From positions 1 to 64,000 of IMG/VR virus record IMGVR_UViG_3300032030_000026: a stretch of 64,000 bases of DNA; one strand, 5' to 3'. The position numbers and the translations under genes are program-made. This DNA is from a virus (Duplodnaviria; Caudoviricetes). Below the pieces are notes generated by a model. That model ran no database searches and had not been told where the DNA came from. It was given only the letters and a program-made list of their open reading frames with translations. Of the stretch, positions 29,221 through 44,369 are shown in pieces. How positions within the stretch are numbered: position 1 is the stretch's first letter; every line of letters starts with the position of its first letter.

Positions 29221-29239
29221 TGGAAATAATGATAAGTAT

Positions 29240-30006: not shown

Positions 30007-30019
30007 GCTATAAAAAATC

Positions 30020-30822: not shown

Positions 30823-30858
30823 AAGCATATCAAAGAGCTCCGCCGGAGCTTTTTTTAT

Positions 30859-30887
30859 CTTAATGTCCGGTGGAATCGGATTATATA
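30859..30887 (+). promoter_or_regulatory. putative phage promoter after a terminator
   Basis: CTTAAT-N12-CGGATTATATA. Confidence 0.55.
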
Positions 30888-30907
30888 TAACTGTAAAATC
30901 ATATTAT

Positions 30908-31246: not shown

Positions 31247-31360
31247 CGCGATATTTTGAGCGATCTATATCTTAGGTATATAATTATACGATTTTGATAC
31301 GAACGCTTAAAATAACCGCATTTGTGTGCGATTTAAATATAAAATTCATAATAATATAAT

Positions 31361-31588
31361 ATGGCAAAACAACAACCAATAGAAGTCGATGCAATCGTCA
31401 CAGAGGCCTTAGGCAATGGAATTTTCCGATGCGAGTTAGAAAACGGACATGAAGTGATTGCTCATCTCTCCGGCAAGATGCGAACCAAATATATCCGGAC
31501 TATTCCGGGCGATAAAGTCCGGCTAGAAATGACTCCTTATGATCTGACCAAAGGAAGAATTTCTTATAGATATAAGGCAGATTCTTAG
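31361..31588 (+). CDS. infA: translation initiation factor IF-1
   Basis: [38 protein letters not shown]. Confidence 0.97.
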
Positions 31589-31614
31589 AATATCTTAAAA
31601 GAAACTTAAAAGAT

Positions 31615-32091
31615 ATGTTAAAATACACAGATACACAGGTAGTATTCAGAGAATTTCCCGGAGAGATAACGCTTGCTATCAACATCTCGGGATGCCCTAA
31701 CCGGTGTCCGGGGTGTCATAGTCCGGAACTGCAGCAGGATATCGGCAAGCCGCTGAACTGGGATACTTTGAAGGATCTTATCGAGAAGAATCCCGGCGTC
31801 ACATGTATAGGATTCATGGGTGGTGACAATGATCCGATGATGGTTAAATATTTAGCTTATCAGATCAGGTCTCGTTTTGATATGAGAGTGGGGTGGTATA
31901 CCGGAGTCGGAAATGCCCAGACTATGAGAGAGATGGATTATGTGAAGATCGGAACTTATCAAGAGCAATTCGGGCCCCTGGATTCACCTACCACCAACCA
32001 GGTATATCTAGAAAGACAACCTAATGGAGATTGGAGAGACAGGACCGACAAGTTCTGGGTTCATAAAAATTCGGAGAACAATCCGGACTAA
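31615..32091 (+). CDS. nrdG: anaerobic ribonucleotide reductase activating protein (radical SAM)
   Basis: VFREFPGEITLAINISGCPNRCPGCHS, FMGGD, PTTNQ. Confidence 0.88.
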   Translation: MLKYTDTQVVFREFPGEITLAINISGCPNRCPGCHSPELQQDIGKPLNWDTLKDLIEKNPGVTCIGFMGGDNDPMMVKYLAYQIRSRFDMRVGWYTGVGNAQTMREMDYVKIGTYQEQFGPLDSPTTNQVYLERQPNGDWRDRTDKFWVHKNSENNPD

Positions 32092-32149
32092 AATTCTTAA
32101 ATATTAATCATAAGAAACTTATATATTTCCATACTAAATATCAAAAATC

Positions 32150-33298
32150 ATGCCAATCAAGAAAAGTGAAATCAAGACGGAGCTGGATCAGCTCAAATAT
32201 GACTACATGAGAGCCTATCAACGGATGTGGGAGGCTCGGAAACGCGGGAAGGATCTTAAAGAATATGAAAAATGCCTGGCTGGAATCAAGGAGAAGATGG
32301 ATAAGATCACCGGACTGGCTCCCGGACACCGCACCGTCCATGAACTAGATCGTAGTGAATATAAACAAGAGTTTGTGCCGGATAAAGATTATCTGGATTC
32401 TATGCCGGATCTTCAAAATTCCCAATTCATCGGAACCCCCATCGATTTTGTAGGTATTGAAGGAATGAGGATTCCTTTGAAGATCAAGCAGAAAAAAGGA
32501 GGAACCCAAGAGGTAGTCTGTGATGTCACCGGCACGGTCTCTTTAGATGCGGCCAAACGCGGTATCAATATGAGCCGCATCCTCCGTTCTCTACAGAAGA
32601 CCACTAAAGGGGCCACTACTTTCGACATCAACGATCTGGAAAAAGTACTGAAAGCCTATCAGAAAGACTTAGATACTTTTGATGCTCACATCTTAGTGAA
32701 CTTCCCATACCGCCTTTGGCAGCCTAGTCTGCGCAGCGTGGATGAAGACGGCGAGCCTAACGGAGGCTGGCAATATTATAATGTCACTTTTGACTGTAAC
32801 TTGGATGTCGACGGAGAGTTCAAGAAGATTATCTGGTTTGATTATGTGTATTCTTCCGCCTGCCCCTGTTCTACGGAACTTTCCATGCATGCTCAGGAGA
32901 CCCGCGGAGTATATGCCATCCCACATTCACAAAGAAGCGTAGCTCGTATAGGTATCGAGATGGGTAACACACTAGTCTGGATTGAAGACATCCTGGCTAT
33001 GTGCAAGAAAGCTATCCCTACCGAAACCCAAGTTTTTGTCAAGAGAGAGGACGAGCAGGCCTTTGCGGAGATGAATGGTGCTAATACTATTTTTGTAGAG
33101 GATGCCGTCAGGAAGCTGAGTGTCGTCTTGGAAGACAATGCGGCGGTGATGGATTATAAGATTATTTGTTCTCATTTTGAATCATTACATAAATCCAATG
33201 CTATCTCGGTTATTACTCGTGGTCGGAGAAGAGATGGGGGAATATCTATTTTCAATCATCATGCTCCACTTGGAGAATGGAGATCTTTAAAGGTGTAA
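32150..33298 (+). CDS. folE2: GTP cyclohydrolase IB (FolE2) with N-terminal extension
   Basis: RGINMSR, SACPCS, PHSQRS, VKREDE, FVEDAVR, ESLH. Confidence 0.93.
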   Translation: MPIKKSEIKTELDQLKYDYMRAYQRMWEARKRGKDLKEYEKCLAGIKEKMDKITGLAPGHRTVHELDRSEYKQEFVPDKDYLDSMPDLQNSQFIGTPIDFVGIEGMRIPLKIKQKKGGTQEVVCDVTGTVSLDAAKRGINMSRILRSLQKTTKGATTFDINDLEKVLKAYQKDLDTFDAHILVNFPYRLWQPSLRSVDEDGEPNGGWQYYNVTFDCNLDVDGEFKKIIWFDYVYSSACPCSTELSMHAQETRGVYAIPHSQRSVARIGIEMGNTLVWIEDILAMCKKAIPTETQVFVKREDEQAFAEMNGANTIFVEDAVRKLSVVLEDNAAVMDYKIICSHFESLHKSNAISVITRGRRRDGGISIFNHHAPLGEWRSLKV

Positions 33299-33371: not shown

Positions 33372-34472
33372 ATGAATACATGGGCATATAATTATTTCTA
33401 TAAAACCACATTAATTCCAACCGGACAATTTTATTATGGAATACACAGTACGAATAATATAAATGATGGATACCTGGGGTCCGGTGTTCGTTTGAGAAAA
33501 TTATTTGATCAATATAAGAAAAGTGATTTTTCTAAAGAGATTATAAAATATTTTAATAGTAGGAAGGAACTGTCGGATTATGAAAGAGAATATATAACAT
33601 TTGATATTCTAAATGATCCTTTATGTCTTAATGTATCGTTAGGTGGAGATTTACATGATAATATTGGTGTTACTAAAGGACTAGTAACTGTTAAAGATAA
33701 AGATGGGAATATATTTGATACTTCAATAAATGATCCGCGATATTTATCCGGAGAATTAATTCCACCAACTAGAGGAACAGTCTCAGTCCGTGATAAATCC
33801 GGTAAAGTCATCAAAGTGCCTGTAAACGATCCGCGGTATTTATCCGGAGAACTAGTAATAATAACTAAAGGAAATAAGGGTATGACCGGACGAACTATGG
33901 TTAAAAAAGATGGAATTCAAAAAAGCATATTATTATCCGAACTTGAAGATTATATAAAAAATGGGTGGGTTCGTGGTAATCTTGATAAAGGCCGAACAAG
34001 TCCCACTAAAGGAAGAATATGGATCTATAAAGATGACAGGCAATTGTGTGTATTATCATCGGAACTTGAAAAATATATAAATGAAGGGTGGACAAAAGGA
34101 AGAATTTGCAAATCCATAAAAGATAGAGTTTCGATAACAAAAGATAATAAAAATAAATATGTTGAAATATATGAACTCGGAAAATATTTACAAGAGGGTT
34201 GGCGATTGGGGGCAACATCTAGAAATAAAGGAAAAGTAACTGTTACTGAGGATGGAATTAATTGGTTTGATGTTGAGAATGATGATGAAAGATTTAAATC
34301 TGGTAAATTAAAGTGTCTTTTTCAAATAAAAAATGTTACTAAAGGCTTGAAGTACATTCATAAGGATGGAAAAATAAAAAGAGTTCGTCCGGAATATGTT
34401 GATAAATTTTTACAAGATGGGTGGATTTTAGGTATGGGGTCTAAATCAAAAAAAGAAAAACAAAATAATTAA
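33372..34472 (+). CDS. free-standing GIY-YIG (Seg-like) homing endonuclease
   Basis: YFYKTT...FYYGIHST...DGYLGSG; C-terminal Y...GW..G repeats. Confidence 0.8.
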   Translation: MNTWAYNYFYKTTLIPTGQFYYGIHSTNNINDGYLGSGVRLRKLFDQYKKSDFSKEIIKYFNSRKELSDYEREYITFDILNDPLCLNVSLGGDLHDNIGVTKGLVTVKDKDGNIFDTSINDPRYLSGELIPPTRGTVSVRDKSGKVIKVPVNDPRYLSGELVIITKGNKGMTGRTMVKKDGIQKSILLSELEDYIKNGWVRGNLDKGRTSPTKGRIWIYKDDRQLCVLSSELEKYINEGWTKGRICKSIKDRVSITKDNKNKYVEIYELGKYLQEGWRLGATSRNKGKVTVTEDGINWFDVENDDERFKSGKLKCLFQIKNVTKGLKYIHKDGKIKRVRPEYVDKFLQDGWILGMGSKSKKEKQNN

Positions 34473-34669: not shown

Positions 34670-34708
34670 AGGTCCGGGGAGGGAAAACAAGATATACAAA
34701 ATATAACG

Positions 34709-34744
34709 ATAAGGCCTTCATTTAGAGGGCCTTATTTTTTTTTT
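34709..34744 (+). terminator. intrinsic terminator or attenuator
   Basis: ATAAGGCCTTC ... GAGGGCCTTAT followed by T10. Confidence 0.8.
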
Positions 34745-34765: not shown

Positions 34766-34835
34766 CTTAAGATCGTATAAGGTGCGATTATATAAAAAAG
34801 CAAGATTGAGAAATCAGAGTTCATTGACATATTGG
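34766..34835 (+). promoter_or_regulatory. phage promoter plus rrn-type boxA
   Basis: CTTAAG-N13-CGATTATATA, then GTTCATTGACATATTGG. Confidence 0.6.
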
Positions 34836-34860
34836 AGAAGATCATAGATATAGTAAGATC

Positions 34861-34954
34861 AATAAAAGCCCCCGGAAGGACCTGCGAGTTCTTTTGCGAG
34901 CATAATAAAAGCCCCCGGAAGGACCTGCGAGTTCTTTTGCGAGCATAATAAAAG
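34861..34954. repeat. 43-bp exact tandem duplication
   Basis: AATAAAAGCCCCCGGAAGGACCTGCGAGTTCTTTTGCGAGCAT x2 + AATAAAAG. Confidence 0.95.
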
Positions 34955-34995: not shown

Positions 34996-35070
34996 AGGGA
35001 GATCCTCTAATCGGTTTTAGGAGACCGGTCTGATACACCGGCAATCCGAGTTCGAGTCTCGGCCTCCCTA
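34996..35070 (+). tRNA. tRNA-Ile(GAT)
   Basis: Cloverleaf; CCGGT-CTGATAC-ACCGG. Confidence 0.9.
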
Positions 35071-35193
35071 CTATATGACCGGACATTTGGGGTACTATAT
35101 GAAAGTGTCATTATGGCCGGGGAAATCCTCGGCGAGAGGGTGGAAAGGATGAAAAGAGTGTCGAAGTTGCAAATTCGATGACTGCTGAGTAGT

Positions 35194-35280
35194 AACCGTG
35201 AGAAGAGTCTGATCAACCTCCAAAGAGTCGGCCGCCTGTTGGCATGAGTAGTATACCGGGTTCGATTCCCGGCGCGGTTC
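35194..35280 (+). ncRNA. tRNA-like RNA (acceptor stem and T arm, no canonical anticodon arm)
   Basis: AACCGTG/CGCGGTT stem; CCGGG-TTCGATT-CCCGG. Confidence 0.5.
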
Positions 35281-35366
35281 CCTATAGGTTGACATCGAAG
35301 TACAAGGTGCAAGCAATGAGGTGTAATGGGGAGAGCCTCACGTTAAACAAAAACCCTCCCGGCTAT

Positions 35367-35441
35367 GGGCCCGTAGTTCAGCCTGGTAGAACGCCTGCCC
35401 TGCAAGCAGGATGTCATGGGTTCAAATCCCATCGTGGTCCA
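35367..35441 (+). tRNA. tRNA-Ala(TGC), C33, bulged acceptor stem
   Basis: G3-U70; CCTGC-CCTGCAA-GCAGG. Confidence 0.8.
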
Positions 35442-35479
35442 CTGAGGTCCCTCGAGGACTTAACTAAAACTGTTTTAGT

Positions 35480-35595
35480 TGCTTGGTAGCTTAAATAGAA
35501 GCAATTATACCTGATCGGCTGACGAGCCGATAGAGTGGAACTTGTAGAGCTCCGTTAGTGAACGGAAGGTGCGAGTGCGAGTCTCGTCCAAGCCC
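35480..35595 (+). ncRNA. tRNA-like RNA with insertion after the D arm
   Basis: GCTTGG/CCAAGC; variant T loop TGCGAGT; TCCGTT-AGTG-AACGGA. Confidence 0.45.
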
Positions 35596-35599
35596 TAAT

Positions 35600-35673
35600 G
35601 GGTGTATAGTTGAACTGGTTTACAATGCCGGCCTGTCACGCCGGTGGTCCGGGTTCGAGTCCCGGTACACCCG
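35600..35673 (+). tRNA. tRNA-Asp(GTC)
   Basis: CCGGC-CTGTCAC-GCCGG. Confidence 0.92.
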
Positions 35674-35679
35674 CACATC

Positions 35680-35752
35680 GCCGATATAGCTCAGCAGGGA
35701 GAGCATCCGATTCGTATTCGGTGGGTCGAGGGTTCAATTCCTTCTATCGGCT
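35680..35752 (+). tRNA. tRNA-Thr(CGT)
   Basis: CCGA-TTCGTAT-TCGG. Confidence 0.85.
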
Positions 35753-35856
35753 CTATAAGGTGTAAATCAATCTCTTTACCCGCACCTGAAGACGCATATC
35801 TTCTCTGGTATAAAGAAGGGGGCAGAGGTCACGGCATCGGAAAGCGGTGCCAATTT

Positions 35857-35930
35857 GGAAAGGTAGCTCAGTTGGTTAGAGTGCCGGAACGTTAAATCCG
35901 GGGACGTGGGTTCGAATCCCGCTCGATCCG
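35857..35930 (+). ncRNA. tRNA-like RNA with 8-nt anticodon loop and weak acceptor stem
   Basis: Canonical D and T arms; CCGGA-ACGTTAAA-TCCGG. Confidence 0.55.
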
Positions 35931-35944
35931 CTAAAAATAAACAC

Positions 35945-36018
35945 TGCGGAATAGGGAAGAGGTCCATCCCGCAAGGCTCATAACCTTGAAATCGCAGGTT
36001 CGAATCCTGCTTCCGCTA
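35945..36018 (+). tRNA. tRNA-Met(CAT), probable initiator
   Basis: CAAGG-CTCATAA-CCTTG; 1:72 mismatch. Confidence 0.85.
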
Positions 36019-36026
36019 CTAATTAT

Positions 36027-36099
36027 TGGGGATTAGCTCAGTCGGTAGAGCGGTGCACTGTTAATGCAATGGTCGTGAGTTCGAGTCTCACATCCCCAG
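36027..36099 (+). tRNA. tRNA-Asn(GTT)
   Basis: TGCA-CTGTTAA-TGCA. Confidence 0.9.
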
Positions 36100-36179
36100 C
36101 AGCGGCGTGGTCTGAACCGTGACCCGTTCAAAAAGAAAAAATAAAAATTGCGGTGGCGCTCTGGAGAGACAGGGAATTT

Positions 36180-36256
36180 TGGGCTATAGCTCAACGGTAG
36201 AGCACCCGTTTAGACATTAGTGAACGGAAGACGGTGGTTCAATTCCACGAGTCCAA
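36180..36256 (+). ncRNA. tRNA-like RNA with 12-nt anticodon loop
   Basis: Canonical D arm; CCGTT-TAGACATTAGTG-AACGG. Confidence 0.6.
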
Positions 36257-36314
36257 CAGGTCTTGGAGATTGTAGGTTTCCCGCCAAGCGATCTAAAGTG
36301 AGGAACCTTCTAAT

Positions 36315-36399
36315 GGGAGTGCTGCTCAGATGGTGGATGGGCAACGGTCTGTAAAACCGTCACAGAGAAACACAGGAGGTTCGAATCCTCCCACTCCCA
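36315..36399 (+). tRNA. tRNA-Tyr(GTA)
   Basis: ACGGT-CTGTAAA-ACCGT; long variable arm. Confidence 0.9.
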
Positions 36400-36408
36400 C
36401 AATATTTT

Positions 36409-36481
36409 GGAGGAGTAGCTCAGCAGGTAGAGCGAAGGACTGAAGATCCTTGCGTCGGGGGTTCGATTCCCTCCTCCTCCA
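36409..36481 (+). tRNA. tRNA-Phe(GAA)
   Basis: AAGGA-CTGAAGA-TCCTT. Confidence 0.92.
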
Positions 36482-36561
36482 CAGCCGGTAAGTTTTGACA
36501 CAGCTTACTTTTCAAAAAACCGTGGCGTTCGTGAGCCTTTGTGGTGAAAAGCTCTCAATAT

Positions 36562-36633
36562 AGGTCTGTAGTGTAATTGGTAGCACACGTGACTCCAAAT
36601 CTCGGAGTATGGGTTCAAGTCCTGTCGGGCCTG
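36562..36633 (+). tRNA. tRNA-Trp(CCA)
   Basis: CGTGA-CTCCAAA-TCTCG. Confidence 0.88.
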
Positions 36634-36642
36634 CAAAATTAT

Positions 36643-36748
36643 TACGATATGGTGTAATGGTAGCACACTCCTGTAGTGGGACCGGTGACGGCCGGATAAG
36701 AGTCATTCAGATGGCTAAGTAGTATTGGTTCGAATCCTTTTATCGTAT
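36643..36748 (+). ncRNA. 106-nt tRNA-like RNA with expanded anticodon/variable region
   Basis: TACGATA/TATCGTA acceptor; D arm GTGT-AATGGTA-GCAC; T loop TTCGAAT. Confidence 0.6.
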
Positions 36749-36754
36749 CAAAAT

Positions 36755-36827
36755 GGCGCGTTCGTCTAGTTGGTTAGGACGCCAGGTTTTCAACCTGGAA
36801 ACCTTGGATCATACCCGGGAGGCGCTA
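36755..36827 (+). tRNA. tRNA-Glu(TTC), atypical T loop ATCATAC
   Basis: CCAGG-TTTTCAA-CCTGG. Confidence 0.75.
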
Positions 36828-36833
36828 CTAAAT

Positions 36834-36906
36834 GGCCCTGTCTGCTAACAGGTCAGGCAACCGGATTCTCAATCCGGAAATCAGAGTTCGAGTCTCTGTG
36901 GGGCTA
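36834..36906 (+). tRNA. tRNA-Glu(CTC)
   Basis: CCGGA-TTCTCAA-TCCGG. Confidence 0.88.
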
Positions 36907-36917
36907 CTAGATATCTT

Positions 36918-36993
36918 GCCCCGGTAGTTCAATGGATTAGAACAAATGACTACGGATCATCAGATGGGGGTTCGAATCCTCTCTGGGGTACCA
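36918..36993 (+). tRNA. tRNA-Arg(ACG), CCA encoded
   Basis: ATGA-CTACGGA-TCAT. Confidence 0.9.
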
Positions 36994-37012
36994 TTATGAC
37001 TATTATGACTAT

Positions 37013-37084
37013 TGGGATGTAGTGTAATGGCTACCACAGCTGACTCTGGATCAGCTAATCTGAGTTCGAATCTCGGCATCCCAA
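37013..37084 (+). tRNA. tRNA-Gln(CTG)
   Basis: GCTGA-CTCTGGA-TCAGC. Confidence 0.9.
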
Positions 37085-37242
37085 CACGAAAGCCTTGTGA
37101 AATGCGCGCGAGTAGCAAGGATCGTACCAGTCTTGGATAGGCGATGCGAAAGCATCGGATAACAATGATCCGACACCGGATCGTAAGTGCCGGTGGGAGT
37201 TTTCCGGTATAGTTCTCCGGTAATATAAACTATACCATCCAT

Positions 37243-37316
37243 GCCCCGGTAGCCCAACTGGCAGAGGCACATGTTTCAGGTACATGACAGTGACGGTTCG
37301 AATCCGTCTTGGGGCA
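37243..37316 (+). tRNA. tRNA-Leu(CAG), short variable arm
   Basis: CATGT-TTCAGGT-ACATG; variable loop ACAGT. Confidence 0.88.
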
Positions 37317-37327
37317 CTAAAAATAAT

Positions 37328-37401
37328 GCGGTAGTAGCTCAATTGGTAGAGCGTCTGCTTGCCATGCAGAAGGCTTGCGGGTCCGAGTCCCGTCTACCGC
37401 T
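37328..37401 (+). tRNA. tRNA-Gly(GCC), T loop TCCGAGT
   Basis: TCTGC-TTGCCAT-GCAGA. Confidence 0.88.
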
Positions 37402-37405
37402 CTAT

Positions 37406-37479
37406 GCGATAGTAGCTCAGTTTGGCAGAGCGTCTGCCTTCCAAGCAGAAGGTCGTGGGTCCAAGTCCCATCTATCGCT
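37406..37479 (+). tRNA. tRNA-Gly(TCC), T loop TCCAAGT
   Basis: TCTGC-CTTCCAA-GCAGA. Confidence 0.88.
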
Positions 37480-37498
37480 CATATTATCAAGTAGTTAT

Positions 37499-37576
37499 AG
37501 GGTAGTAGTTCAGTTGGTAGAACGCCTGGTTTGGGTCCAGGAGGTTTTTTCGCAGGTTCGAGCCCTGTCTACCCTA
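37499..37576 (+). tRNA. tRNA-Pro(TGG), enlarged variable loop
   Basis: CCTGG-TTTGGGT-CCAGG. Confidence 0.85.
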
Positions 37577-37602
37577 CTGATTATCAATTACTTACAAGAA
37601 AT

Positions 37603-37685
37603 GGAGAGTAAATTCTACGGGGTAGGAGCCAACCTGCTAAGTTGTGCGAGTGTAACAGCTTGTGGATCGAGACCACTGCTCTCCG
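37603..37685 (+). tRNA. tRNA-Ser(GCT), 8/4 fold
   Basis: 8-bp acceptor GGAGAGTA/TGCTCTCC; 4-bp T stem; loop CTGCTAA. Confidence 0.8.
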
Positions 37686-37914
37686 CTTATCGAAATATAC
37701 AGTAAACGGGATAAACACGGGCAGCAGTGTGTTCCTTCGCCAACCATGGGAGGTGGGTAAATAACACCCTGTATATGACCAGCTGTGATAAATTAAAAAG
37801 GGGTTATATTAAAGCTTCCAAACCAGAACCCCTGAGCCCTTAACTGTGTGAGACGTCACCGGGGCGACAGTCCATTGGGTAATTCCATAGGAGCGCTGTT
37901 AGGGAAGCAATTAT

Positions 37915-37986
37915 TGAGCTGTGGTATAATTGGTAACACGTTGGGTTTTGATCCCAAAGTTCTGGATTCGAGTTCCGGCAGCTCAA
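37915..37986 (+). tRNA. tRNA-Gln(TTG)
   Basis: TTGGG-TTTTGAT-CCCAA. Confidence 0.88.
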
Positions 37987-37990
37987 CGAA

Positions 37991-38068
37991 GATGCATTAG
38001 TTCAGGTTCGAGTCCTGACTTTGGCAAGTGTTTGCTGAGGTGCGAGCAATAGGTAGACAGAATGCATC
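37991..38068 (+). ncRNA. circularly permuted tRNA-like (YrlA-type) RNA
   Basis: Order: GATGCATT, T arm, acceptor 3' strand, 7-nt linker, acceptor 5' strand, D region, AATGCATC. Confidence 0.65.
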
Positions 38069-38071
38069 CAT

Positions 38072-38144
38072 GACGGAGTGTCCGAATTGGTTTAGGTGAC
38101 TGGCCGCAACCCAGTCTATGCAGGTTCGAGTCCTGTCTCCGTCT
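38072..38144 (+). tRNA. tRNA-Cys(GCA), C33
   Basis: ACTGG-CCGCAAC-CCAGT; U73. Confidence 0.85.
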
Positions 38145-38167
38145 CTTGAAAAAAATGATTTTCTTTC

Positions 38168-38228
38168 CTTAAGATTCTCTGAAATCGTTTATATAATATC
38201 ACAAGAGAGAAGTTCTTTGACATATTGG
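38168..38228 (+). promoter_or_regulatory. internal phage promoter plus rrn-type boxA
   Basis: CTTAAG-N12-CGTTTATATA, then GTTCTTTGACATATTGG. Confidence 0.65.
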
Positions 38229-38249
38229 AAAGATCATAGATAAGAAAGT

Positions 38250-38359
38250 TACGGGTTGAAATGCCGGTTCGAGCCCGGCCCTGTCCGCCATTAAGAAAGG
38301 CCTTCGGAAAATCATTCGGAGGGTGCGGGTGGGTTGACAAAGGGATAGTCTGGCCCGTA
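38250..38359 (+). ncRNA. circularly permuted tRNA-like (YrlA-type) RNA with internal CCA
   Basis: TACGGGTT/GGCCCGTA terminal stem; T arm GCCGG-TTCGAGC-CCGGC; CCTGTCC-G-CCA; linker; GCGGGTGGG; D arm. Confidence 0.7.
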
Positions 38360-38363
38360 TTTT

Positions 38364-38437
38364 GCCCTGATAGCCCAACTGGCAGAGGCCTGCGGCTTAG
38401 AACCGCAACAGTGCGAGTTCGAATCTCGCTCGGGGCA
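38364..38437 (+). tRNA. tRNA-Leu(TAG), short variable arm
   Basis: TGCGG-CTTAGAA-CCGCA; ACAGT. Confidence 0.88.
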
Positions 38438-38545
38438 CAAAGATCAGCAGACTGAATCAAGAAAAGCATAGAACAACAAAACAAAGAACAGAACGGCTGC
38501 CTCTTTACAAGTTTTCTTGAGCTGAAGGCCGTTTTAGCTGCTGAT

Positions 38546-39116
38546 CCGGATGAGGTGAAATGATATATCCTCGCAAAGCACGGACAGGATCTCGTGAAGG
38601 TCTCAATCTTATTGGAACTAGTAGATTCCGGCTTTGAAAAGGCCACAATAGTGGTAACACCGTATGGTATTATAATACACTAGTTCTGTGTAATCTGCTC
38701 GAAACACTTATATAGAAGGAGAGAGCTGGAATCTTGGGTGCCAAACATAGACGAAAGACCGAGTGATGCAAGATGGAGCCGAAGCGATAAATTATATAAA
38801 GAGGCTATCCGGTAAAGAACAATACTTGTCCCTGACAATAATATAGTCAAACAAAGATTTGATGTGCCTCAAAAAATGTCTCCGTGTTATTTGCACAGGT
38901 ACTTCTAAAAACCTCGGTTTTTGGATGATTAAATTTCACATTTTGAGAGAGTGTTATAAAAAAGGGAAAGCCGTGACGGATGGATATTCGATAGGTGTTT
39001 ATAAACACTGAAAGGAAGTATTGTCGCTTCGCCATCCACGGATGTAGCATCATGTCAGAACAAGTAAGTCTGGTGAGGTCCCTTATCCTTGCATGGCTGA
39101 AAGTTCATGTTCTTTA
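38546..39116 (+). ncRNA. large ornate ncRNA, probable ROOL RNA
   Basis: About 570 nt between tRNAs, no credible ORF; long-range helices CCGGAT/ATCCGG, ACAATACTT/AAGTATTGT, TAAAGAAC/GTTCTTTA; AGAACAAGTAAG..TGGTG segment matches ROOL as I recall it. Confidence 0.65.
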
Positions 39117-39122
39117 TTTGAT

Positions 39123-39196
39123 ATCCCGGTAGCCCAACCGGCAGAGGCACAGCGTTGAGGGCGCTGACAGTGGCAGTTCGAATCTGCCTCGGGATA
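39123..39196 (+). tRNA. tRNA-Leu(GAG), short variable arm
   Basis: CAGCG-TTGAGGG-CGCTG; ACAGT. Confidence 0.88.
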
Positions 39197-39276
39197 CTAA
39201 AAAAACCCATAGATATTACTTCTTTAGACTAACGTGTTAAAAAGCGGAACTGGTAAGAAAGTGAGAATGGGTATAA

Positions 39277-39490
39277 AAAGTCAAGAACATTCCACCAAGT
39301 AGCGTTCGGGGTAAGTGTCAGGCAAATGTCGACTTCTTCCTGGTGCGGTGTCTCGGAGCCAAAGAGCTGCCGTCAGCCCGATGAACGGTGTTGGTTATCG
39401 TGAGGTGCCATAAGGTGCAACGCAACAGTGCGGTTTGCGAAGAGCATATAACCAACGCACAGTCCGTAGCTCGTAAATTTTCTTGGCTTT
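39277..39490 (+). ncRNA. unassigned structured RNA, about 210 nt
   Basis: Closing helix AAAGTCAAGAA/TTCTTGGCTTT; internal GTGTTGGTTAT/ATAACCAACGC. Confidence 0.45.
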
Positions 39491-39494
39491 CTAT

Positions 39495-39570
39495 GGGGAA
39501 GTAGCTTAGCGGTCCAGAGCGACAATGGGTGTGACGCCCGGAGACATTGGTTCAAATCCAGTCTTCCCTG
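39495..39570 (+). ncRNA. tRNA-like RNA with distorted anticodon arm
   Basis: GGGGAAG/CTTCCCT; D and T arms intact; GGGTG-TGA-CGCCC. Confidence 0.6.
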
Positions 39571-39668
39571 CGAGAACAGCTGCTGCAACAGCTTAGTAAC
39601 TGGCGATGTCTGATATTTCAATGTGCCTTTGCAGGGGTTAGACAGAGAAGGGATCAGGTATCGAAAAA

Positions 39669-39738
39669 TTCTTATTCGTACAATCGGTTAGGACACCGGC
39701 GATGGTCGGAAATGCTGGTTCGAGTCCAGCATAAGAGT
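39669..39738 (+). ncRNA. tRNA-like RNA with a 4-nt loop replacing the anticodon loop
   Basis: TTCTTAT/ATAAGAG; CCGGC-GATG-GTCGG; perfect T arm. Confidence 0.65.
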
Positions 39739-39743
39739 CAAAT

Positions 39744-39827
39744 AGAGAGTTAACTGCGGCGGCCTGCAGGCCGGTTTCGAAAACCGTGCGAGTCCTATGG
39801 CTTGGGGATCGACACCTCAGCTCTCTG
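39744..39827 (+). tRNA. tRNA-Ser(CGA), 8/4 fold
   Basis: AGAGAGTT/AGCTCTCT; loop TTCGAAA; T loop ATCGACA. Confidence 0.82.
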
Positions 39828-39835
39828 CAAACAAT

Positions 39836-39922
39836 GGAGAGCTAAGCCGGCGGGGCTGGCCGCTGTTTGGAAGACAGTCGGAGTCTGGAAGATGGCTTGG
39901 GGATCGAGACCTCAGTTCTCCG
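39836..39922 (+). tRNA. tRNA-Ser(GGA), 8/4 fold
   Basis: GGAGAGCT/AGTTCTCC; loop TTGGAAG. Confidence 0.82.
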
Positions 39923-39987
39923 CAAACTGTGGAACTATGGAAATGTCATTCATCCACGGGTCGTCCCCAAAACAAGAATGGCATATT

Positions 39988-40071
39988 GGAGAGTTAACTG
40001 CAGCGGCCTGCAGACCGGTCTTGAAAACCGTGGGAGTATAACAGCTTGGGGATCGACACCTCAGCTCTCCG
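39988..40071 (+). tRNA. tRNA-Ser(TGA), 8/4 fold
   Basis: GGAGAGTT/AGCTCTCC; loop CTTGAAA. Confidence 0.82.
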
Positions 40072-40324
40072 CAAAGGCTTCAGAAATGAAGTTAGGTGTC
40101 CTTGGGGAGACTTATAACCTTCCGACTGTGGGAAGCCCCCACTACAGCGTACCGAGGAACGTGGACATCCTCCATTGATGTAATTGCGCAATAAGTCAGT
40201 GGAGACTTCCAAGCAAATAATCCGCACGAAAGTGCGTCAATATATTGGGCATAATGGAAAGTAGTGTGCCGTACCGCAATTCGGGGCGCGAAACCGAGTT
40301 CATCTCGGTTGTCCACCAATTTTT

Positions 40325-40398
40325 GGGCTAGTGGCGCAATTGGTTAGCGCAGATGTCTTATACACATAAGGTTGGGGGTTCAAGTCCCTCCTAGCCCA
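40325..40398 (+). tRNA. tRNA-Ile(TAT)
   Basis: ATGT-CTTATAC-ACAT; Ile-type body, A73. Confidence 0.85.
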
Positions 40399-40515
40399 CT
40401 ATGAGAAGTGTATATAAACCTCAGGCGTGCGCCTATGGCTCGCAAAATCATAGGTAGTTATCGTTTATACGTAAAACAGCGGAAGGAGCGGCCCAACCGT
40501 AAGAGGCTGCGATAT

Positions 40516-40589
40516 GGTGTTAGTAGCTCAGTTGGTAGAGTGCTGGATTGTGGTTCCAGTGGTCGCAGGTTCGATCCCTGTCTAACACA
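40516..40589 (+). tRNA. tRNA-His(GTG)
   Basis: CTGGA-TTGTGGT-TCCAG; encoded G-1 opposite A73. Confidence 0.88.
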
Positions 40590-40754
40590 CTAAAGGATTG
40601 GTTGATCCGAGGTTCAAGAAGGCTTGCTTGAGATGGCTACACAGCAGGAAATGCTTGAGATGGAAACTGTGAAGGGACAGCCATAAGTCGTGAAGTACAG
40701 TTAGATGTGGAGGTCTGCTGAAAGAAGGTGACCGTGTAGGACAATCCAATCTAT

Positions 40755-40828
40755 AGCTCGATAGCCCAACCGGCAGAGGCGACAGATTCAAAACCTGTAC
40801 AGTGTGAGTTCGAATCTCACTCGGGCTA
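40755..40828 (+). tRNA. tRNA-Leu(CAA), short variable arm
   Basis: ACAG(A)-TTCAAAA-(C)CTGT; ACAGT. Confidence 0.85.
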
Positions 40829-40838
40829 CAATATATTT

Positions 40839-40967
40839 TGGGATGTAGTCGAATTGGTAGAGATGCCCGGGATGGTCCGGGAGGTTTGCAAATAATTTCG
40901 CGATGAATAGCAAACGGCACTCATTGGCCTGAGTGTCATAATGAAGGTTCGAATCCTTCCATCCCAG
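40839..40967 (+). ncRNA. 129-nt tRNA-like RNA with two-hairpin variable region
   Basis: TGGGATG/CATCCCA; CCCGG-GATGGT-CCGGG; perfect T arm. Confidence 0.65.
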
Positions 40968-41089
40968 CTAGTATCCGGCAACCTATATGAGCCGGGAATT
41001 CGAGAATATCTCGTTAATAGGTCAAGGCCATGCCCCTTGCTAGTGGGGGTTGGAGCTCATACGAAAATGTGAGAATCACTAGCGATTTT

Positions 41090-41163
41090 GCCGATGTAGC
41101 GGAGCTGGCTTCATGCGCCGCTCTCATAAGGCGGAGACGGTGGTTCGAGTCCACCCATCGGCA
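41090..41163 (+). tRNA. tRNA-Met(CAT), elongator type
   Basis: CCGCT-CTCATAA-GGCGG; paired 1:72. Confidence 0.85.
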
Positions 41164-41181
41164 CGAAAGCGAAAAAAGCTC

Positions 41182-41253
41182 CGGCGTGTAGCTCAGTAGG
41201 CAGAGCGGGCCAAGGTACTGGCCGGGTCCTCGGTTCGAGTCCGAGTGCGTCAA
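41182..41253 (+). ncRNA. tRNA-like RNA with 6-nt anticodon loop
   Basis: GGCCA-AGGTAC-TGGCC; C1:A72 mismatch; canonical D and T arms. Confidence 0.6.
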
Positions 41254-41312
41254 AGAGTTTGCAATTACTTCGCATACGGTACCTAGCTGAGGTTTTGCAC
41301 GTTTTCTCGCGA

Positions 41313-41386
41313 GCGGAGTTAGCTCAGTTGGAAGCAGCATCCGGCTTACATCCGGAGGGTCGGGGGTTCGAGTCCCTCATTCCGCA
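41313..41386 (+). tRNA. tRNA-Val(TAC)
   Basis: TCCGG-CTTACAT-CCGGA. Confidence 0.85.
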
Positions 41387-41534
41387 CTAAAAAATAAACC
41401 TTGTGATCCCAGAGGGGTTGGTCACTTCCAGCTGGTAGGTTATTTTTCTCTTTCATACGACTGTCAAGGGGTATTATCCATCGTGCAATGACAGTCCAAC
41501 ATAAAGAGTTTTCTTAAAGGTGAAGTGACACTTT

Positions 41535-41608
41535 GGCGCTGTGGGCAAACTGGTTAAGCCGCCACTCTTTCAAGGTGGAAACTACGGGTTCGAGCCCCGT
41601 CGGCGCTA
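41535..41608 (+). tRNA. tRNA-Glu(TTC), second copy
   Basis: CCACT-CTTTCAA-GGTGG. Confidence 0.85.
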
Positions 41609-41759
41609 CTGCGGAAGCAAATCAGTAATGGAGTTATGGGGGTCTGAGTGAAAGCTCAGAATGGAGTGGCTACTCCACGTTAAATATTAAAAGTAGCCTG
41701 GTGGACTTGCCATCGGGCGGGAACACAGAAAGCCGGCGCTGCAAAGACCGGCACACTAA

Positions 41760-41831
41760 GCCGGTGTAACTCAATGGTAGAGTATCGCACTTGTAATGCG
41801 GCGGTTGTGGGTTCGACTCCCTCCATAGGCA
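41760..41831 (+). tRNA. tRNA-Thr(TGT)
   Basis: TCGCA-CTTGTAA-TGCGG. Confidence 0.82.
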
Positions 41832-41850
41832 CTCATAAAACGTTATAATT

Positions 41851-42231
41851 ATGGAAAAGAAGATAAATGATCGTAGATATACAATTCTCGGAATTCACCG
41901 AAACGGTACATTATATGGATGGGCAGAGAATTCATTTTCCTTCTCCGCATCCGAGACGCACACTCGTGTATGGGGCGCGGAATATAAAGAATTCGGCGGT
42001 CGAAAATATTGGAAGCCGAACAGAAACCAGTCCAACTGGAACTATCTCAAAAAAGTTGCTGATGATCTGACTGCAAAGAAGTTTATGAACTGCGTCTGGA
42101 GAGTGTACCGAGTCGGCAGCAAGCACTGCCCAGCTGACATAGACTTCAGAACTTGCGATCTGATGAAACATGGTAAAATAAAATACGACAAATATCTGGC
42201 GAGAAACCACAGATTCTCGCCGAAACAATAA
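41851..42231 (+). CDS. basic hypothetical protein within the tRNA island
   Basis: 126-aa ORF filling the gap between RNA genes. Confidence 0.65.
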   Translation: MEKKINDRRYTILGIHRNGTLYGWAENSFSFSASETHTRVWGAEYKEFGGRKYWKPNRNQSNWNYLKKVADDLTAKKFMNCVWRVYRVGSKHCPADIDFRTCDLMKHGKIKYDKYLARNHRFSPKQ

Positions 42232-42494
42232 CGGGCGACCCGGATAATGGGGATTGAACAGGCGGATTAGCTACCGCTTACGCAATGGCGCTTCTGAGAC
42301 GGATCTCAGAGACAAGCCGTAAAGTGCGGAACCGAAAGTCCAATGAGCTGTAGACAATCGGCGCAAGCACCAGAACTCAGGCGATGACAGTTGCAATAGA
42401 GCTCAATAAAGAGCTGCCAAGTCTGAGTCATTCTCTGACTGGACAGGCCAGTCCAAGAAGAAGCGTTCAGGAGGTTCGACTCCTCCTCGCCCGA
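42232..42494 (+). ncRNA. 263-nt RNA framed by a tRNA acceptor stem and T arm
   Basis: CGGGCGA/TCGCCCG-A; GGAGG-TTCGACT-CCTCC; TGAAC/GTTCA helix encloses several hairpins. Confidence 0.65.
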
Positions 42495-42501
42495 CTAAGT
42501 T

Positions 42502-42586
42502 GGCTGAGTGGCGAAATTGGTAGTACGCTTCAGACTTAAAATCTGATGTCCGTAAGGACGTGCGGGTTCAAGTCCCGCCTCAGCTA
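42502..42586 (+). tRNA. tRNA-Leu(TAA), long variable arm
   Basis: TCAGA-CTTAAAA-TCTGA. Confidence 0.9.
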
Positions 42587-42659
42587 CAAACAGTGGACAT
42601 TTGGAGGGAAATTGTTAAAACGTTGTGATTCGCTCATGGAAATGTCCTAACAACGTTAC

Positions 42660-42732
42660 GCGTCAGTAGCTCAGTAGGTAGAGCACATCCCTTTTAAGGA
42701 TGGGGTCCCGGGTTCGAGTCCCGGCTGACGCA
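42660..42732 (+). tRNA. tRNA-Lys(TTT)
   Basis: CATCC-CTTTTAA-GGATG. Confidence 0.92.
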
Positions 42733-42739
42733 CTTATAA

Positions 42740-42822
42740 GGAGAGCTAAATCGGCGGGGCCGATCGCTGTTTGGAAGACAGTTGGAAGGTAACACTTTGG
42801 GGATCGAGACCTCAGTTCTCCG
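42740..42822 (+). tRNA. tRNA-Ser(GGA), 8/4 fold, second copy
   Basis: GGAGAGCT/AGTTCTCC; loop TTGGAAG. Confidence 0.82.
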
Positions 42823-42827
42823 CACAA

Positions 42828-42900
42828 GCCCTTGTAGCGCAATTGGTAGAGCATCTGTTTTGTAGTCAGAGGGTTGGGGGTTCAAGTCCTCTCAGGGGCT
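42828..42900 (+). tRNA. tRNA-Thr(TGT), second copy
   Basis: TCTG(T)-TTTGTAG-(T)CAGA. Confidence 0.82.
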
Positions 42901-42917
42901 CTTATTATAATTATATT

Positions 42918-42993
42918 GGGAGTTTAGCTCAGCTGGTTCAGTAGCGTCTGCCTTACAAGCAGAAGGTCGTTGGTTCGAATCCAACAACTCCCA
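42918..42993 (+). tRNA. tRNA-Val(TAC), second copy
   Basis: TCTGC-CTTACAA-GCAGA. Confidence 0.9.
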
Positions 42994-42998
42994 CAAAG

Positions 42999-43264
42999 CT
43001 GGCGTCGTTGACGCTCCGGTGAAAGGATGTTTGGACGAGGGGTTCGATTCCCTCTACCTCCACTATTTCTTAGCTGACCAACCAAGATGTTGGAACAGTT
43101 ACGGTGGCGGAAACTTAATATGAGATCCGTCACTTGCTTATGGGGGTAATTGGTTTTGACAGCATTTGAGTAAGAAGAGAAGAGATGCCGGTGAGTGAGA
43201 ATAAATCACAAAACAACTGTTCGTCTCGCTGCTTAAGCCTAGGGCTCACAACAAGCGAGGGTCC
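42999..43264 (+). ncRNA. ssrA: circularly permuted (two-piece) tmRNA
   Basis: T arm and TACCTCC-A (43055-43062) precede GGGGGTA-ATTGGTTTTGACAGC (from 43142); G3-U70; tag frame ending VRLAA-stop (43207-43236). Confidence 0.85.
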
Positions 43265-43293
43265 GGGGAGAACCAAATCTCCCCATTTCTTTT
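43265..43293 (+). terminator. intrinsic terminator after tmRNA
   Basis: GGGGAGA-ACCAAA-TCTCCCC followed by a T-rich tail. Confidence 0.7.
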
Positions 43294-43341
43294 GTAAATA
43301 TGGAAGATTGATTTCTTATTTTTAGGTAAATAAAACATATT

Positions 43342-43736
43342 ATGGCATTTATAACTAAGAATGAGGAAGAATTCAGACAAGGTCAAGAATTTTACAAAGA
43401 TATTATTCCGCTGTTCGTAAACGTATCGTAAACGTAAAGACCAACCATGAGACTATATACGGAATATCATGTCCACAGATTAATGATGTGCAAGAAATGA
43501 TCATAAATGCACTAAAAGAGGTTACCGTGCCGTTTGAAGGTTCTATAAGTGTCGAGCTAGGCTTGCTTTCCGATAGTTCTAAGTTCGTCACAGCAACAAA
43601 GATCAATTATGATCAATGGATCCAGATTAGAAATTACAATATAGAAATTGAATTAGAGGTTGCACATGTTCTAAGCAATGAATTCTTTGCGGGATTGTGC
43701 AATAAATATCTAAAATTAATAAACAAGCTGTCGTAG
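43342..43736 (+). pseudogene. frameshifted hypothetical gene (or 1-nt sequencing error)
   Basis: ATG 43342 frame stops near 43431; another frame runs open from about 43407 to 43736. Confidence 0.45.
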
Positions 43737-43800
43737 CTCAGTTGGTAGTAGAGCGTCCTTGGTAAGGAAGAGGTCGCCAGTTCAAGTCCGGCCGACTGCT
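43727..43800 (+). tRNA. tRNA-Thr(GGT)
   Basis: TCC-TTGGTAA-GGA; several stem mismatches. Confidence 0.75.
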
Positions 43801-43807
43801 CTTGATT

Positions 43808-43881
43808 GTCTCGGTGATGCAATTGGTAGACATGCTTCTCTTAAACAGAAGATCTTGAGAGTTCGAATCTCTCTCGGGACA
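43808..43881 (+). tRNA. tRNA-Leu(TAA), short variable arm
   Basis: CTTCT-CTTAAAC-AGAAG; 5-nt variable loop. Confidence 0.85.
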
Positions 43882-43898
43882 CGAAATAAATATAAGTT

Positions 43899-44168
43899 AT
43901 GAAATCAATATTAGAATCTATTAATGAATCCGAAAAGAAATATGATAATTTCCTGAATCTTCCTCCTATAACTGAACTCGGAGACGGTGAGTATGATTGC
44001 GCTGTTTGGGGACATAGTGTTGTTTGTGATGGTAAGAAATATTATTCGGAAATTGGTATAAAGAACATTTATCCTATCAAGATGAAGATAATCATCAAAG
44101 ACGGCAATGTTCGATTTGGGGATTCCGATAATCTTCAAAGAGCGGAATTGAAAAAACTTTTCGATTAA
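43899..44168 (+). CDS. hypothetical protein
   Basis: MKSILESINES start resembles the Glu-ending leaders. Confidence 0.65.
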   Translation: MKSILESINESEKKYDNFLNLPPITELGDGEYDCAVWGHSVVCDGKKYYSEIGIKNIYPIKMKIIIKDGNVRFGDSDNLQRAELKKLFD

Positions 44169-44176
44169 TCATAATT

Positions 44177-44249
44177 GTTCTTATAGCTCAATGGATCAGA
44201 GCACGGGCCTCCGGAGCCCGGGATCCGGGTTCGAATCCCGGTAGGAGCT
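44177..44249 (+). tRNA. tRNA-Arg(CCG)
   Basis: CGGGC-CTCCGGA-GCCCG. Confidence 0.88.
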
Positions 44250-44276
44250 CTATATGACATCTATGATCTTTTCATC

Positions 44277-44350
44277 GCCTCGATAGCTCAATGGATCAGA
44301 GCAACGCCCTTCTAAGGCGAAGGTTGAAGGTTCGACCCCTTCTCGAGGTA
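44277..44350 (+). tRNA. tRNA-Arg(TCT)
   Basis: CGCC-CTTCTAA-GGCG. Confidence 0.9.
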
Positions 44351-44369
44351 CTAAAAATTAAGAATTATT

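Follow-up and report, generated by a model that had tools for sequence, protein, structure and literature searches.

A near-complete tRNA set, a two-piece tmRNA and non-decoding tRNA-like RNAs in a large T4-like phage from sheep gut

Huge phages have been found to carry up to 67 transfer RNAs (tRNAs), transfer-messenger RNAs (tmRNAs), IF1, Que genes and functions for the ligation of cleaved tRNAs (Al-Shayeb et al. 2020, PMC7162821), and surveys of jumbo phages link tRNAs with RtcB/Rnl ligases and with TROVE proteins (PMC7824862). Here we describe an island of RNA genes at positions 34996-44351 of a 64,000-nucleotide (nt) stretch of viral DNA (hereafter the window), which makes up the first 64 kb of the IMG/VR record IMGVR_UViG_3300032030_000026. 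It contains 42 tRNA genes whose anticodon loops have 7 nt, together with a tmRNA and tRNA-like RNAs that do not decode. We give a probability of about 0.6 to the reading that it is a decoding-autonomy module, equipped with a rescue RNA, of a large T4-like phage that probably infects a member of the Bacteroidota.

The same inventory is found in huge phages, among them the Prevotella Lak megaphages, whose IF-1 is 57-58% identical to that of the island phage. The island phage differs from them in its T4-type structural genes, its estimated genome size of ~200 kb and its two-piece tmRNA, and aminoacyl-tRNA synthetases, ribosomal proteins, SmpB and a CCA-adding enzyme were not seen in its 115 kb. 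Phage T4 encodes 8 tRNAs, the stable species 1 and 2 RNAs and the homing endonuclease segB, and repairs PrrC-cut tRNA-Lys with Pnkp and Rnl1. The likeness to T4 lies in the virion module, in a tRNA cluster with additional stable RNAs that have tRNA-like ends, in a homing endonuclease at the edge of the cluster and in an RNA-sealing enzyme encoded elsewhere. In contrast to T4, the island phage has five times more tRNAs and a tmRNA, encodes RtcB for direct 3'-phosphate/5'-OH ligation instead of a kinase-phosphatase and an ATP-dependent ligase, and has no known cognate host nuclease. Bxz1-group mycobacteriophages are likewise rich in tRNAs, and an RtcB homologue occurs in 157 Mycobacterium phage records, a count that does not imply the presence of tmRNA and tRNAs in the same records. 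Genes for tmRNA are listed for Bxz1 and its relatives (PMC4131195); the Bxz1 tmRNA is one-piece and the hosts are Actinomycetota, unlike the case described here.

Three further systems are close in single respects. The OM43 phage Melnitz is a T4-like myovirus that also has a circularly permuted ssrA (PMC9004378), but it carries 4 tRNAs and a glutamine riboswitch, whereas the island phage comes from the ruminant gut and no riboswitch was found in it. Phage T5 likewise has a large tRNA array, with Lys, Tyr and further target tRNAs among its members; its counter-nuclease function has been established by experiment (PMC11464382, PMC11555353, PMC10264068), whereas the island is known from its sequence and has mostly ordinary anticodon loops. 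The Salmonella rsr-yrlBA-rtcBA operon (Ro60, Y RNAs and RtcB) shares with the island phage an RtcB and RNAs with tRNA-like modules. The initial annotation had drawn an analogy with such Ro60/Y-RNA repair operons, which does not hold: RtcB is not adjacent to the RNAs, a six-frame search of the 115-kb contig gave no match to TROVE/Ro60 (PF05731) although controls matched, and the best YrlA matches in the contig, at 30.8 and 28.2 bits, stayed below the cut-off of 69 and fell on tandem tRNA pairs.

The record is a single viral contig of 115,073 bp with a GC content of ~37%; CheckV puts its completeness at ~57%. T4-type portal, large terminase and baseplate domains were identified with Pfam in its second half, and most other contig proteins have no Pfam family. 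We conclude that the phage is a large uncultivated T4-like phage from sheep gut. Megablast of the 30-46 kb region against 50,697 phage records retrieved no close cultured relative; the sole matches, 59-68 nt long, were to a tRNA-Leu of a Streptomyces phage. Comparisons throughout were made with a sister phage, a 110-kb IMG/VR contig (G001) whose RtcB and FolE2 are 94% and 95% identical in amino acid sequence and whose island is syntenic with that of the window (nucleotide identity 75-100%) but differs from it by many insertions and deletions. More distant viral contigs, retrieved by FolE2 and by the open reading frame (ORF) downstream of the island, had no tRNA island nearby and added no sequences for covariation.

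The tRNA set and its decoding capacity

The island has a GC content of 47.6%, compared with 37.1% in the rest of the window. At its default setting ARAGORN finds 38 tRNA genes, all on the + strand within 34996-44351, and none outside the island in the 115-kb contig. Thirty-eight tRNAs also score above the gathering threshold of Rfam family RF00005 (36.6-75 bits; cut-off 29), and the E-value mode adds a tRNA at 39123, a class II tRNA-like match at 39987 and an insertion-bearing tRNA at 40839-40967. No serine tRNA passes the default ARAGORN threshold; three were recovered by lowering it and two by a scan for T-arms and acceptor strands. The total is 42 genes with 7-nt anticodon loops (40 from ARAGORN and two serine genes found by hand), a Pro(GGG)-like gene included. 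They comprise 36 distinct anticodons and cover all 20 amino acids, so that the 41 tRNAs for all amino acids read from the sequence in the initial annotation were essentially right.

34996-44351, + strand: RNA-gene island
37603-37686, + strand: tRNA-Ser(GCT), from low-threshold ARAGORN or the T-arm/acceptor scan
39744-39829, + strand: tRNA-Ser(CGA), from low-threshold ARAGORN or the T-arm/acceptor scan
39836-39923, + strand: tRNA-Ser(GGA), from low-threshold ARAGORN or the T-arm/acceptor scan
39988-40072, + strand: tRNA-Ser(TGA), from low-threshold ARAGORN or the T-arm/acceptor scan
42740-42823, + strand: second tRNA-Ser(GGA), from low-threshold ARAGORN or the T-arm/acceptor scan
39495-39571, + strand: Pro(GGG)-like gene, from low-threshold ARAGORN/T-arm scan
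35367-35441 and 38072-38145, + strand: tRNA-Ala(TGC) and tRNA-Cys(GCA), both with C33
37243-37317, 38364-38438, 39123-39197, 40755-40829 and 43808-43882, + strand: short Leu tRNAs, 75 nt each

Most of these genes have ordinary anticodon loops. U33 together with a purine at position 37 is present in 39 of the 42 (37 of 40 ARAGORN genes and both hand-found serine genes); the exceptions are the Ala and Cys genes, with C33, and the Pro(GGG)-like gene, with a pyrimidine at 37. All five serine genes are built on one common frame, and four of them are at least 93% identical to their sister-phage counterparts, the figure for Ser(CGA) being 74-84%. The encoded 3' end of nearly all tRNA genes consists of the discriminator and the first C only, followed by T or A, and a full CCA is present only in Arg(ACG) (36918-36993). 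Maturation would therefore depend on host enzymes.

The leucine tRNAs depart from the usual form. Five of them, with anticodons CAG, TAG, GAG, CAA and TAA, share one 75-nt frame in which the D-stem (3 bp) and D-loop (11 nt) are of the class II kind and position 73 is A, but the variable loop has only 5 nt; one ordinary 86-nt Leu(TAA) stands beside them. An annotated 75-nt tRNA-Leu(CAA) of Streptomyces phage Moab is of the same short type and is 86-92% identical over 59-68 nt, although the hosts of the two phages are unrelated.

If wobble is applied strictly, 57 of the 61 sense codons can be read by the set; these account for 94.7% of the codon usage of the phage, and all 61 are read if U34 of the Ala and Val tRNAs reads four ways. 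Duplicated tRNAs fit the commonest phage codons (GAA, 73%; GUA, 36%; UUA, 30%; UCU and UCC, 52% combined), Ile(UAU) reads AUA (44% of Ile codons) and Arg(UCU) reads AGA (41% of Arg codons). Codon boxes are filled by paralogues of the same frame that differ in their anticodons, which argues for selection for complete decoding and not for the piecemeal capture of host genes; the two Gly tRNAs are 83% identical to each other. From these sequences the set appears, visibly, to have been built inside phages through tRNA duplication and anticodon shifts.

A simpler explanation is plain codon compensation, whereby the island merely supplements tRNAs for A- or U-ending codons that a GC-richer host supplies poorly. 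The phage GC content of 37% would fit, as would the extra copies of U34 tRNAs for GAA, GUA and UUA and the dedicated Ile(UAU) and Arg(UCU) for the heavily used AUA and AGA. However, the set is near-complete and extends to tRNAs for rare codons, namely Leu CAG and GAG, Arg CCG, Thr CGT, Glu CTC and Gln CTG, and compensation leaves the tmRNA and the non-decoding RNAs unexplained. We regard it as very unlikely.

In the sister phage a well-formed 70-nt tRNA with the amber-suppressor anticodon CUA precedes tRNA-Phe (1841-1910 of the extracted stretch L021), at the site that holds tRNA-Tyr(GTA) in the window. There is no sign of stop-codon recoding in the window, where 72 TAA, 16 TGA and 11 TAG stops are used.

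The two-piece tmRNA and the non-decoding RNAs

The tmRNA reported in the initial annotation is confirmed by Rfam and proves to be of the two-piece type.

43002-43264, + strand: two-piece (permuted) tmRNA, RF04321, 57.5 bits (cut-off 47)
43265-43284, + strand: intrinsic terminator, immediately 3' of the tmRNA

The RF04321 match covers 43002-43236 and the full model (positions 1-213 of 213). The gene runs from the T-arm and 3' acceptor strand through a spacer of ~77 nt to the 5' acceptor strand, the D-loop analogue and the tag frame. Its acceptor strands (GGGGGTA and TACCTCC) form the G3:U70 pair and are followed by discriminator A73. The tag frame after AUAAAU, whose resume codon we place from the model alignment, ends in HKTTVRLAA and a TAA stop at 43234-43236. 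The tmRNA is 91-94% identical in the sister phage. SmpB (PF01668) gave no match in a six-frame search of the 115-kb contig, whereas control genomes matched, and the phage tmRNA presumably uses the SmpB of the host. Two-piece forms make up 53 of 133 unique phage tmRNAs, and for 50 of these the sample was marine or aquatic (Buchholz et al., PMC9004378). Bacteroidota tmRNAs are almost all one-piece (24,380 standard against 48 permuted; supplement of PMC11915505), so the phage tmRNA would not be a simple copy of a host gene if the host belongs to that phylum.

An unrelated 59-kb viral contig (G007) encodes an 80-nt one-piece tmRNA that consists of the tRNA-like domain only (1298-1377 of stretch L108; RF00023, 65 bits) and resembles the inhibitory element of mycobacteriophage DS6A. 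Exact-pattern scans of viral contigs for the tmRNA motif retrieved only the sister phage and this contig.

About nine tRNA-like RNAs of the island are unable to decode, and several of their structures are kept in the sister phage through compensatory change. The non-canonical RNAs noted in the initial annotation are real. They are accompanied by two further blocks without tRNA form that are conserved in the sister phage.

38250-38359, + strand: permuted tRNA-like domain without tag frame, from structure and sister-phage comparison
40839-40967, + strand: tRNA frame of 129 nt with the anticodon and variable region replaced, Rfam tRNA 38.1 bits with insertion
35194-35281, + strand: 88-nt tRNA-like RNA in which acceptor stem and perfect T-arm are present and an anticodon arm is not recognisable; 87% identity to the sister phage
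42232-42495, + strand: 264-nt RNA in which a 7-bp acceptor-like stem beside a T-arm closes a multi-hairpin interior
38439-39122, + strand: conserved ORF-free RNA of ~680 nt between tRNA-Leu(TAG) and tRNA-Leu(GAG)

In the permuted domain at 38250-38359 the T-arm is followed by the strand CCTGTCC, a G, CCA and a linker hairpin; next come GGGTGGG, which forms G3:U70, and a closing helix. Of its 34 predicted pairs, one is changed in a compensatory and four in a one-sided manner in the sister phage, and none is broken. It looks like a tag-less two-piece mini-tmRNA, a resemblance suggested by the predicted structure; the beta_tmRNA model gives a weak and non-significant match (9.3 bits, E 2.9). In the 129-nt RNA, acceptor, D-arm and T-arm are retained and ~70 nt of hairpins stand in the place of the anticodon and variable region; 7 of 32 predicted pairs are compensatory in the sister phage, with none broken. 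Unconstrained folding of the 264-nt RNA yields both stems (z = -3.55; none of 200 shuffles was as stable), and its 97.7% identity to the sister phage is above that of many tRNAs and of many neighbouring stretches. The first 434 nt of the ~680-nt RNA contain 103 predicted pairs, of which 3 are compensatory and none is broken in the sister phage. Alongside it, the same samples contain a variant in which 166 nt are skipped (38791 to 38958).

A block of 228 nt at 37687-37914 is 97-98% identical to the sister phage, again more than many tRNAs; it gives no thermodynamic fold signal (z 0.04) and contains no convincing ORF, the 22-codon ORF inside it lying in sequence of 98% identity. The conserved non-tRNA blocks returned nothing meaningful from Rfam at E<=10, and the ~680-nt RNA matched no family at that threshold in a scan of all families that covered GOLLD. 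ROOL (RF03087) had no match in the contig at E<=10, nor did any control genome match it. A 25-codon ORF with a Shine-Dalgarno-like motif within the ~680-nt RNA was considered as a gene; as the differences that the sister phage shows in it are non-synonymous and suit the helices, it was rejected.

The remaining non-decoders are a lone T-arm and four tRNA genes with 6- or 8-nt anticodon loops. The latter have no syntenic counterpart in the sister phage and are therefore more likely to be decaying copies.

These RNAs raise the alternative that the tmRNA and the tag-less domain take over or block trans-translation of the host, for example if they titrate SmpB or alanyl-tRNA synthetase or re-tag host proteins, and that the other tRNA-like ends are handles for RNase P/Z from which small RNAs are released. 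The T4 species 1 and 2 RNAs provide a precedent for stable RNAs excised from tRNA precursors. The mini-tmRNA of the unrelated contig and the lack of an SmpB gene in the 115-kb contig are consistent with such a take-over, as is the almost certainly one-piece tmRNA of the host, if the host is one of the Bacteroidota. A tmRNA of DS6A that consists of the tRNA-like domain only inhibits tmRNA in E. coli (PMC4131195). Against it, the phage encodes a full tmRNA whose LAA tag and tRNA-like domain are normal, as in a working rescuer, and the permuted domain has G73 in place of A73 and an encoded CCA that is CCG in the sister phage. We consider this alternative improbable.

Transcription units and presence in RNA libraries

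Signals for separate transcription were found in and around the island.

33372-34472, + strand: HNH/homing endonuclease gene (PHROG 12434, 4.6e-24; PHROG 314, 1.2e-18), the upstream edge of the island
34708-34736, + strand: intrinsic terminator (12-bp stem, then a T run) that parts the homing-endonuclease gene from the island
34780-34850, + strand: promoter-like site (TTAAGA-N17-TATATA) and leader, copy 1
38169-38242, + strand: internal promoter-like site (TTAAGA-N17-TATAAT) and leader, copy 2

Both leaders contain the 20-nt motif GTTCWTTGACATATTGGARA, which occurs in the window only in copy 1 and at 38212 (0.04 matches expected) and which we take to resemble rrn boxA. A terminator before the island, two copies of promoter and leader, and a terminator after the tmRNA point to at least three transcription units of its own. 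A tandem duplication of a 42-nt unit (34862-34950) lies between the first leader and the tRNA that opens the array.

The island is represented in RNA libraries at a depth far above that of its flanks. In two sheep-gut metatranscriptome runs from one sample we found 88% and 58% of its sampled words. Contig depth, a crude proxy for expression, was 57-1748 and 5-396 over the island in the two runs, compared with 6-22 and 0-5 over the upstream protein genes. In a DNA run from the same habitat depth did not rise over the island in this way; the single high bin was due to contigs of other organisms. Bovine and other gut runs, which contained small shares of the words, were left out as evidence of habitat, and stretches that some runs failed to cover were given no weight. 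The highest contig depth of the whole 20-kb stretch fell on the ~680-nt RNA in both libraries. These data argue that the island RNAs are abundant, above all those from 38.0-39.3 kb. A silent island, which would have counted against the initial annotation, is thus not what these libraries show.

A further idea is that the conserved permuted domain, the 129-nt and 264-nt RNAs and the very abundant ~680-nt RNA are new phage RNA effectors, and not debris or by-products. Their targets would be host factors that recognise tRNAs (for example SmpB, alanyl-tRNA synthetase, anticodon nucleases or tRNA-sensing immune proteins), and together they would make up the RNA arm of a counter-defence or a take-over. 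We hold this to be unlikely.

RtcB, IF-1 and the role of the island

The initial annotation combined the island with two protein genes of the window into a single anti-ribotoxin system of replacement tRNAs, decoys, repair and ribosome rescue. Both genes are genuine.

8137-9468, + strand: rtcB, RNA 3'-phosphate/5'-OH ligase (Pfam PF01139, 1.1e-56)
7165-8127, + strand: orphan ORF of 320 amino acids, ending 10 nt before rtcB
31361-31588, + strand: infA, translation initiation factor IF-1 (Pfam PF01176, 4.9e-26)
25903-33298, + strand: preQ0 genes around infA, namely QueD-like (25903-26532), QueC (27553-28299), radical-SAM QueE-like (31615-32091) and FolE2 (32150-33298)

RtcB matches its profile with 193 bits over positions 10-420 of 426, and its motifs PDVH, DIGC, GGGNHF, HFGSR and SHGAGR, which serve metal binding and carry the GMP-histidine, align with those of Thermus TTHA1785, a protein of solved structure. 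The adjoining 320-amino-acid ORF has nothing similar in Pfam, PHROGs, PDB sequences or the ESM Atlas, and a single homologue, 93% identical, among 5.8 billion proteins. IF-1 scores 90.6 bits (cut-off 30.2) over its entire profile (positions 1-64 of 64). Its 80 best cellular matches are all from Bacteroidota, at 67-75% identity. An unassigned 308-amino-acid ORF (26562-27488) lies between the QueD-like gene and QueC. The 7-deazaguanine made by the preQ0 genes might enter either DNA or the GUN-anticodon tRNAs of the phage.

Six-frame searches of the contig, in which controls matched, gave no match to a CCA-adding enzyme or to archease (PF01951) and no Pfam match to TGT/DpdA. The Pfam survey of ~125 ORFs turned up no RtcA and no further families of translation or RNA repair; no ATP-dependent RNA ligase or polynucleotide kinase-phosphatase family was among them either (E<=1e-4 to 1e-2; not searched in six frames). 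The ligase-like domain mentioned in the initial annotation was not located, RtcB being the only ligase family in these ORFs. IF-1, which had been counted as part of a rescue kit, is an initiation factor and not a rescue factor.

No physical or regulatory link joins these genes to the island. RtcB lies 27 kb upstream of it, in another gene block; infA stands within the preQ0 genes, with two terminators between it and the island. Both genes are also found in other phages: homologues of RtcB are present in 572 phage records from many lineages, and those of IF-1 in 36, Lak megaphages included. In Bacteroides phage BI-TP1 there is no annotated tRNA within 6 kb upstream of RtcB or within the 2.5 kb downstream of it (the end of the record), and 114 kb of an incomplete contig from a more distant relative (G002) contain RtcB-like pieces but neither tRNA nor IF-1. 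These occurrences indicate that the parts travel separately. The evidence says that RtcB and IF-1 are loosely associated helpers and not parts of one wired system: the components named initially exist, apart from the ligase-like domain, but their integration is unsupported.

The RtcB match of G002 (21891-23539) is in two pieces ~1.3 kb apart, which suggests that this rtcB may be interrupted by an intein or an inserted element.

How far, then, does counter-defence account for the island? It is established that phage tRNAs and RNA ligases counter tRNA-cleaving defences (PMC10264068, PMC11555353, PMC11464382, PMC7824862), and a single system against anticodon nucleases or ribotoxins could use the tRNAs as replacements, the mimics as decoys, RtcB for repair and the tmRNA with IF-1 for rescue. 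In favour of this, phage tRNAs neutralise PARIS, retron and PrrC-type nucleases (PMC11464382, PMC11555353, PMC10264068), RtcB seals ends of the kind that such nucleases leave, and surveys of jumbo phages tie tRNAs to RtcB/Rnl ligases (PMC7824862). The island contains all classic target tRNAs (Lys, Tyr, His, Asn, Asp, Arg and fMet-like), a few of its loops deviate (C33 in Ala and Cys; 6 or 8 nt in four genes), and the tRNA region of Streptomyces phage Moab contains an RNA ligase gene. These points are offset by the distance of RtcB, by the terminators between the island and infA and by the confinement of the leader motif to the island, as well as by the phages that have RtcB or RtcB-like pieces where no tRNA was found. 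Moreover, the anticodon loops of 39 of the 42 tRNAs are ordinary, the genes with 6- or 8-nt loops look like decaying copies, the contig yielded neither Ro60 nor SmpB nor a CCA enzyme, and no host defence system is known for this phage. One integrated counter-defence system is thus quite unlikely, although protection against tRNA-cleaving defences is plausible as one selective force among several.

We therefore return to decoding autonomy as the preferred reading of an island whose gene content, structures, conservation and presence in RNA libraries were observed directly. On this reading, the co-oriented transcription units would be read from phage promoter-like sites into polycistronic precursors, which RNase P, 3' trimming enzymes and the CCA-adding enzyme of the host would cut and finish. 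The products would be ~42 tRNAs, the two-piece tmRNA and several stable tRNA-framed RNAs. Once charged, the near-complete tRNA set could read almost every codon of the AT-rich phage genome and may benefit the phage by freeing late translation from the host tRNA pool, whether that pool is depleted or mismatched by shut-off, by codon bias or by tRNA-cleaving defences. With host SmpB as its partner, the tmRNA would release ribosomes that have stalled on broken messages, and RtcB (sealing of RNA ends) and IF-1 (initiation) may serve the same broad end from separate, unlinked genes.

Several points weigh against this reading. The sister phage has a smaller set of 24 tRNAs (ARAGORN default), so that much of the island is either dispensable or in flux. 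Functional coverage of the 20 amino acids is a prediction only, since the acceptor stem of Ala(TGC) is bulged, C33 is present in both Ala(TGC) and Cys, and the T-loops of the serine tRNAs are unusual in carrying A54; alanine depends on a single gene, whose sister-phage orthologue has a clean stem, G3:U70, A73 and U33. The supply of tRNAs alone leaves the conserved non-decoding RNAs and the tag-less permuted domain unexplained. Contig depth reveals no RNA ends, processing or charging. As to the host, infA indicates only the phylum of its donor, and the codon figures are those of the phage's own genes. Finally, with ~57% of the genome in hand, partner genes may sit on the remainder.

Translation-rescue toolkits and the idea that they act in counter-immunity are already in the literature, and current understanding is not changed by this island. 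It adds a well-documented case from the ruminant gut, in which a near-complete decoding set is present in a T4-like phage, probably of Bacteroidota. Some features are less ordinary: a gut phage with a probable Bacteroidota host encodes a two-piece tmRNA, its island contains a tag-less permuted domain, several tRNA-framed RNAs conserve their structure, one long RNA is abundant, and five Leu tRNAs have short variable loops. The two-piece tmRNA occurs where the likely host phylum uses a one-piece tmRNA, and the structure-conserving tRNA-framed RNAs, together with a long RNA that dominates the RNA libraries, all of them outside the Rfam families, are the more useful leads for phage biology.

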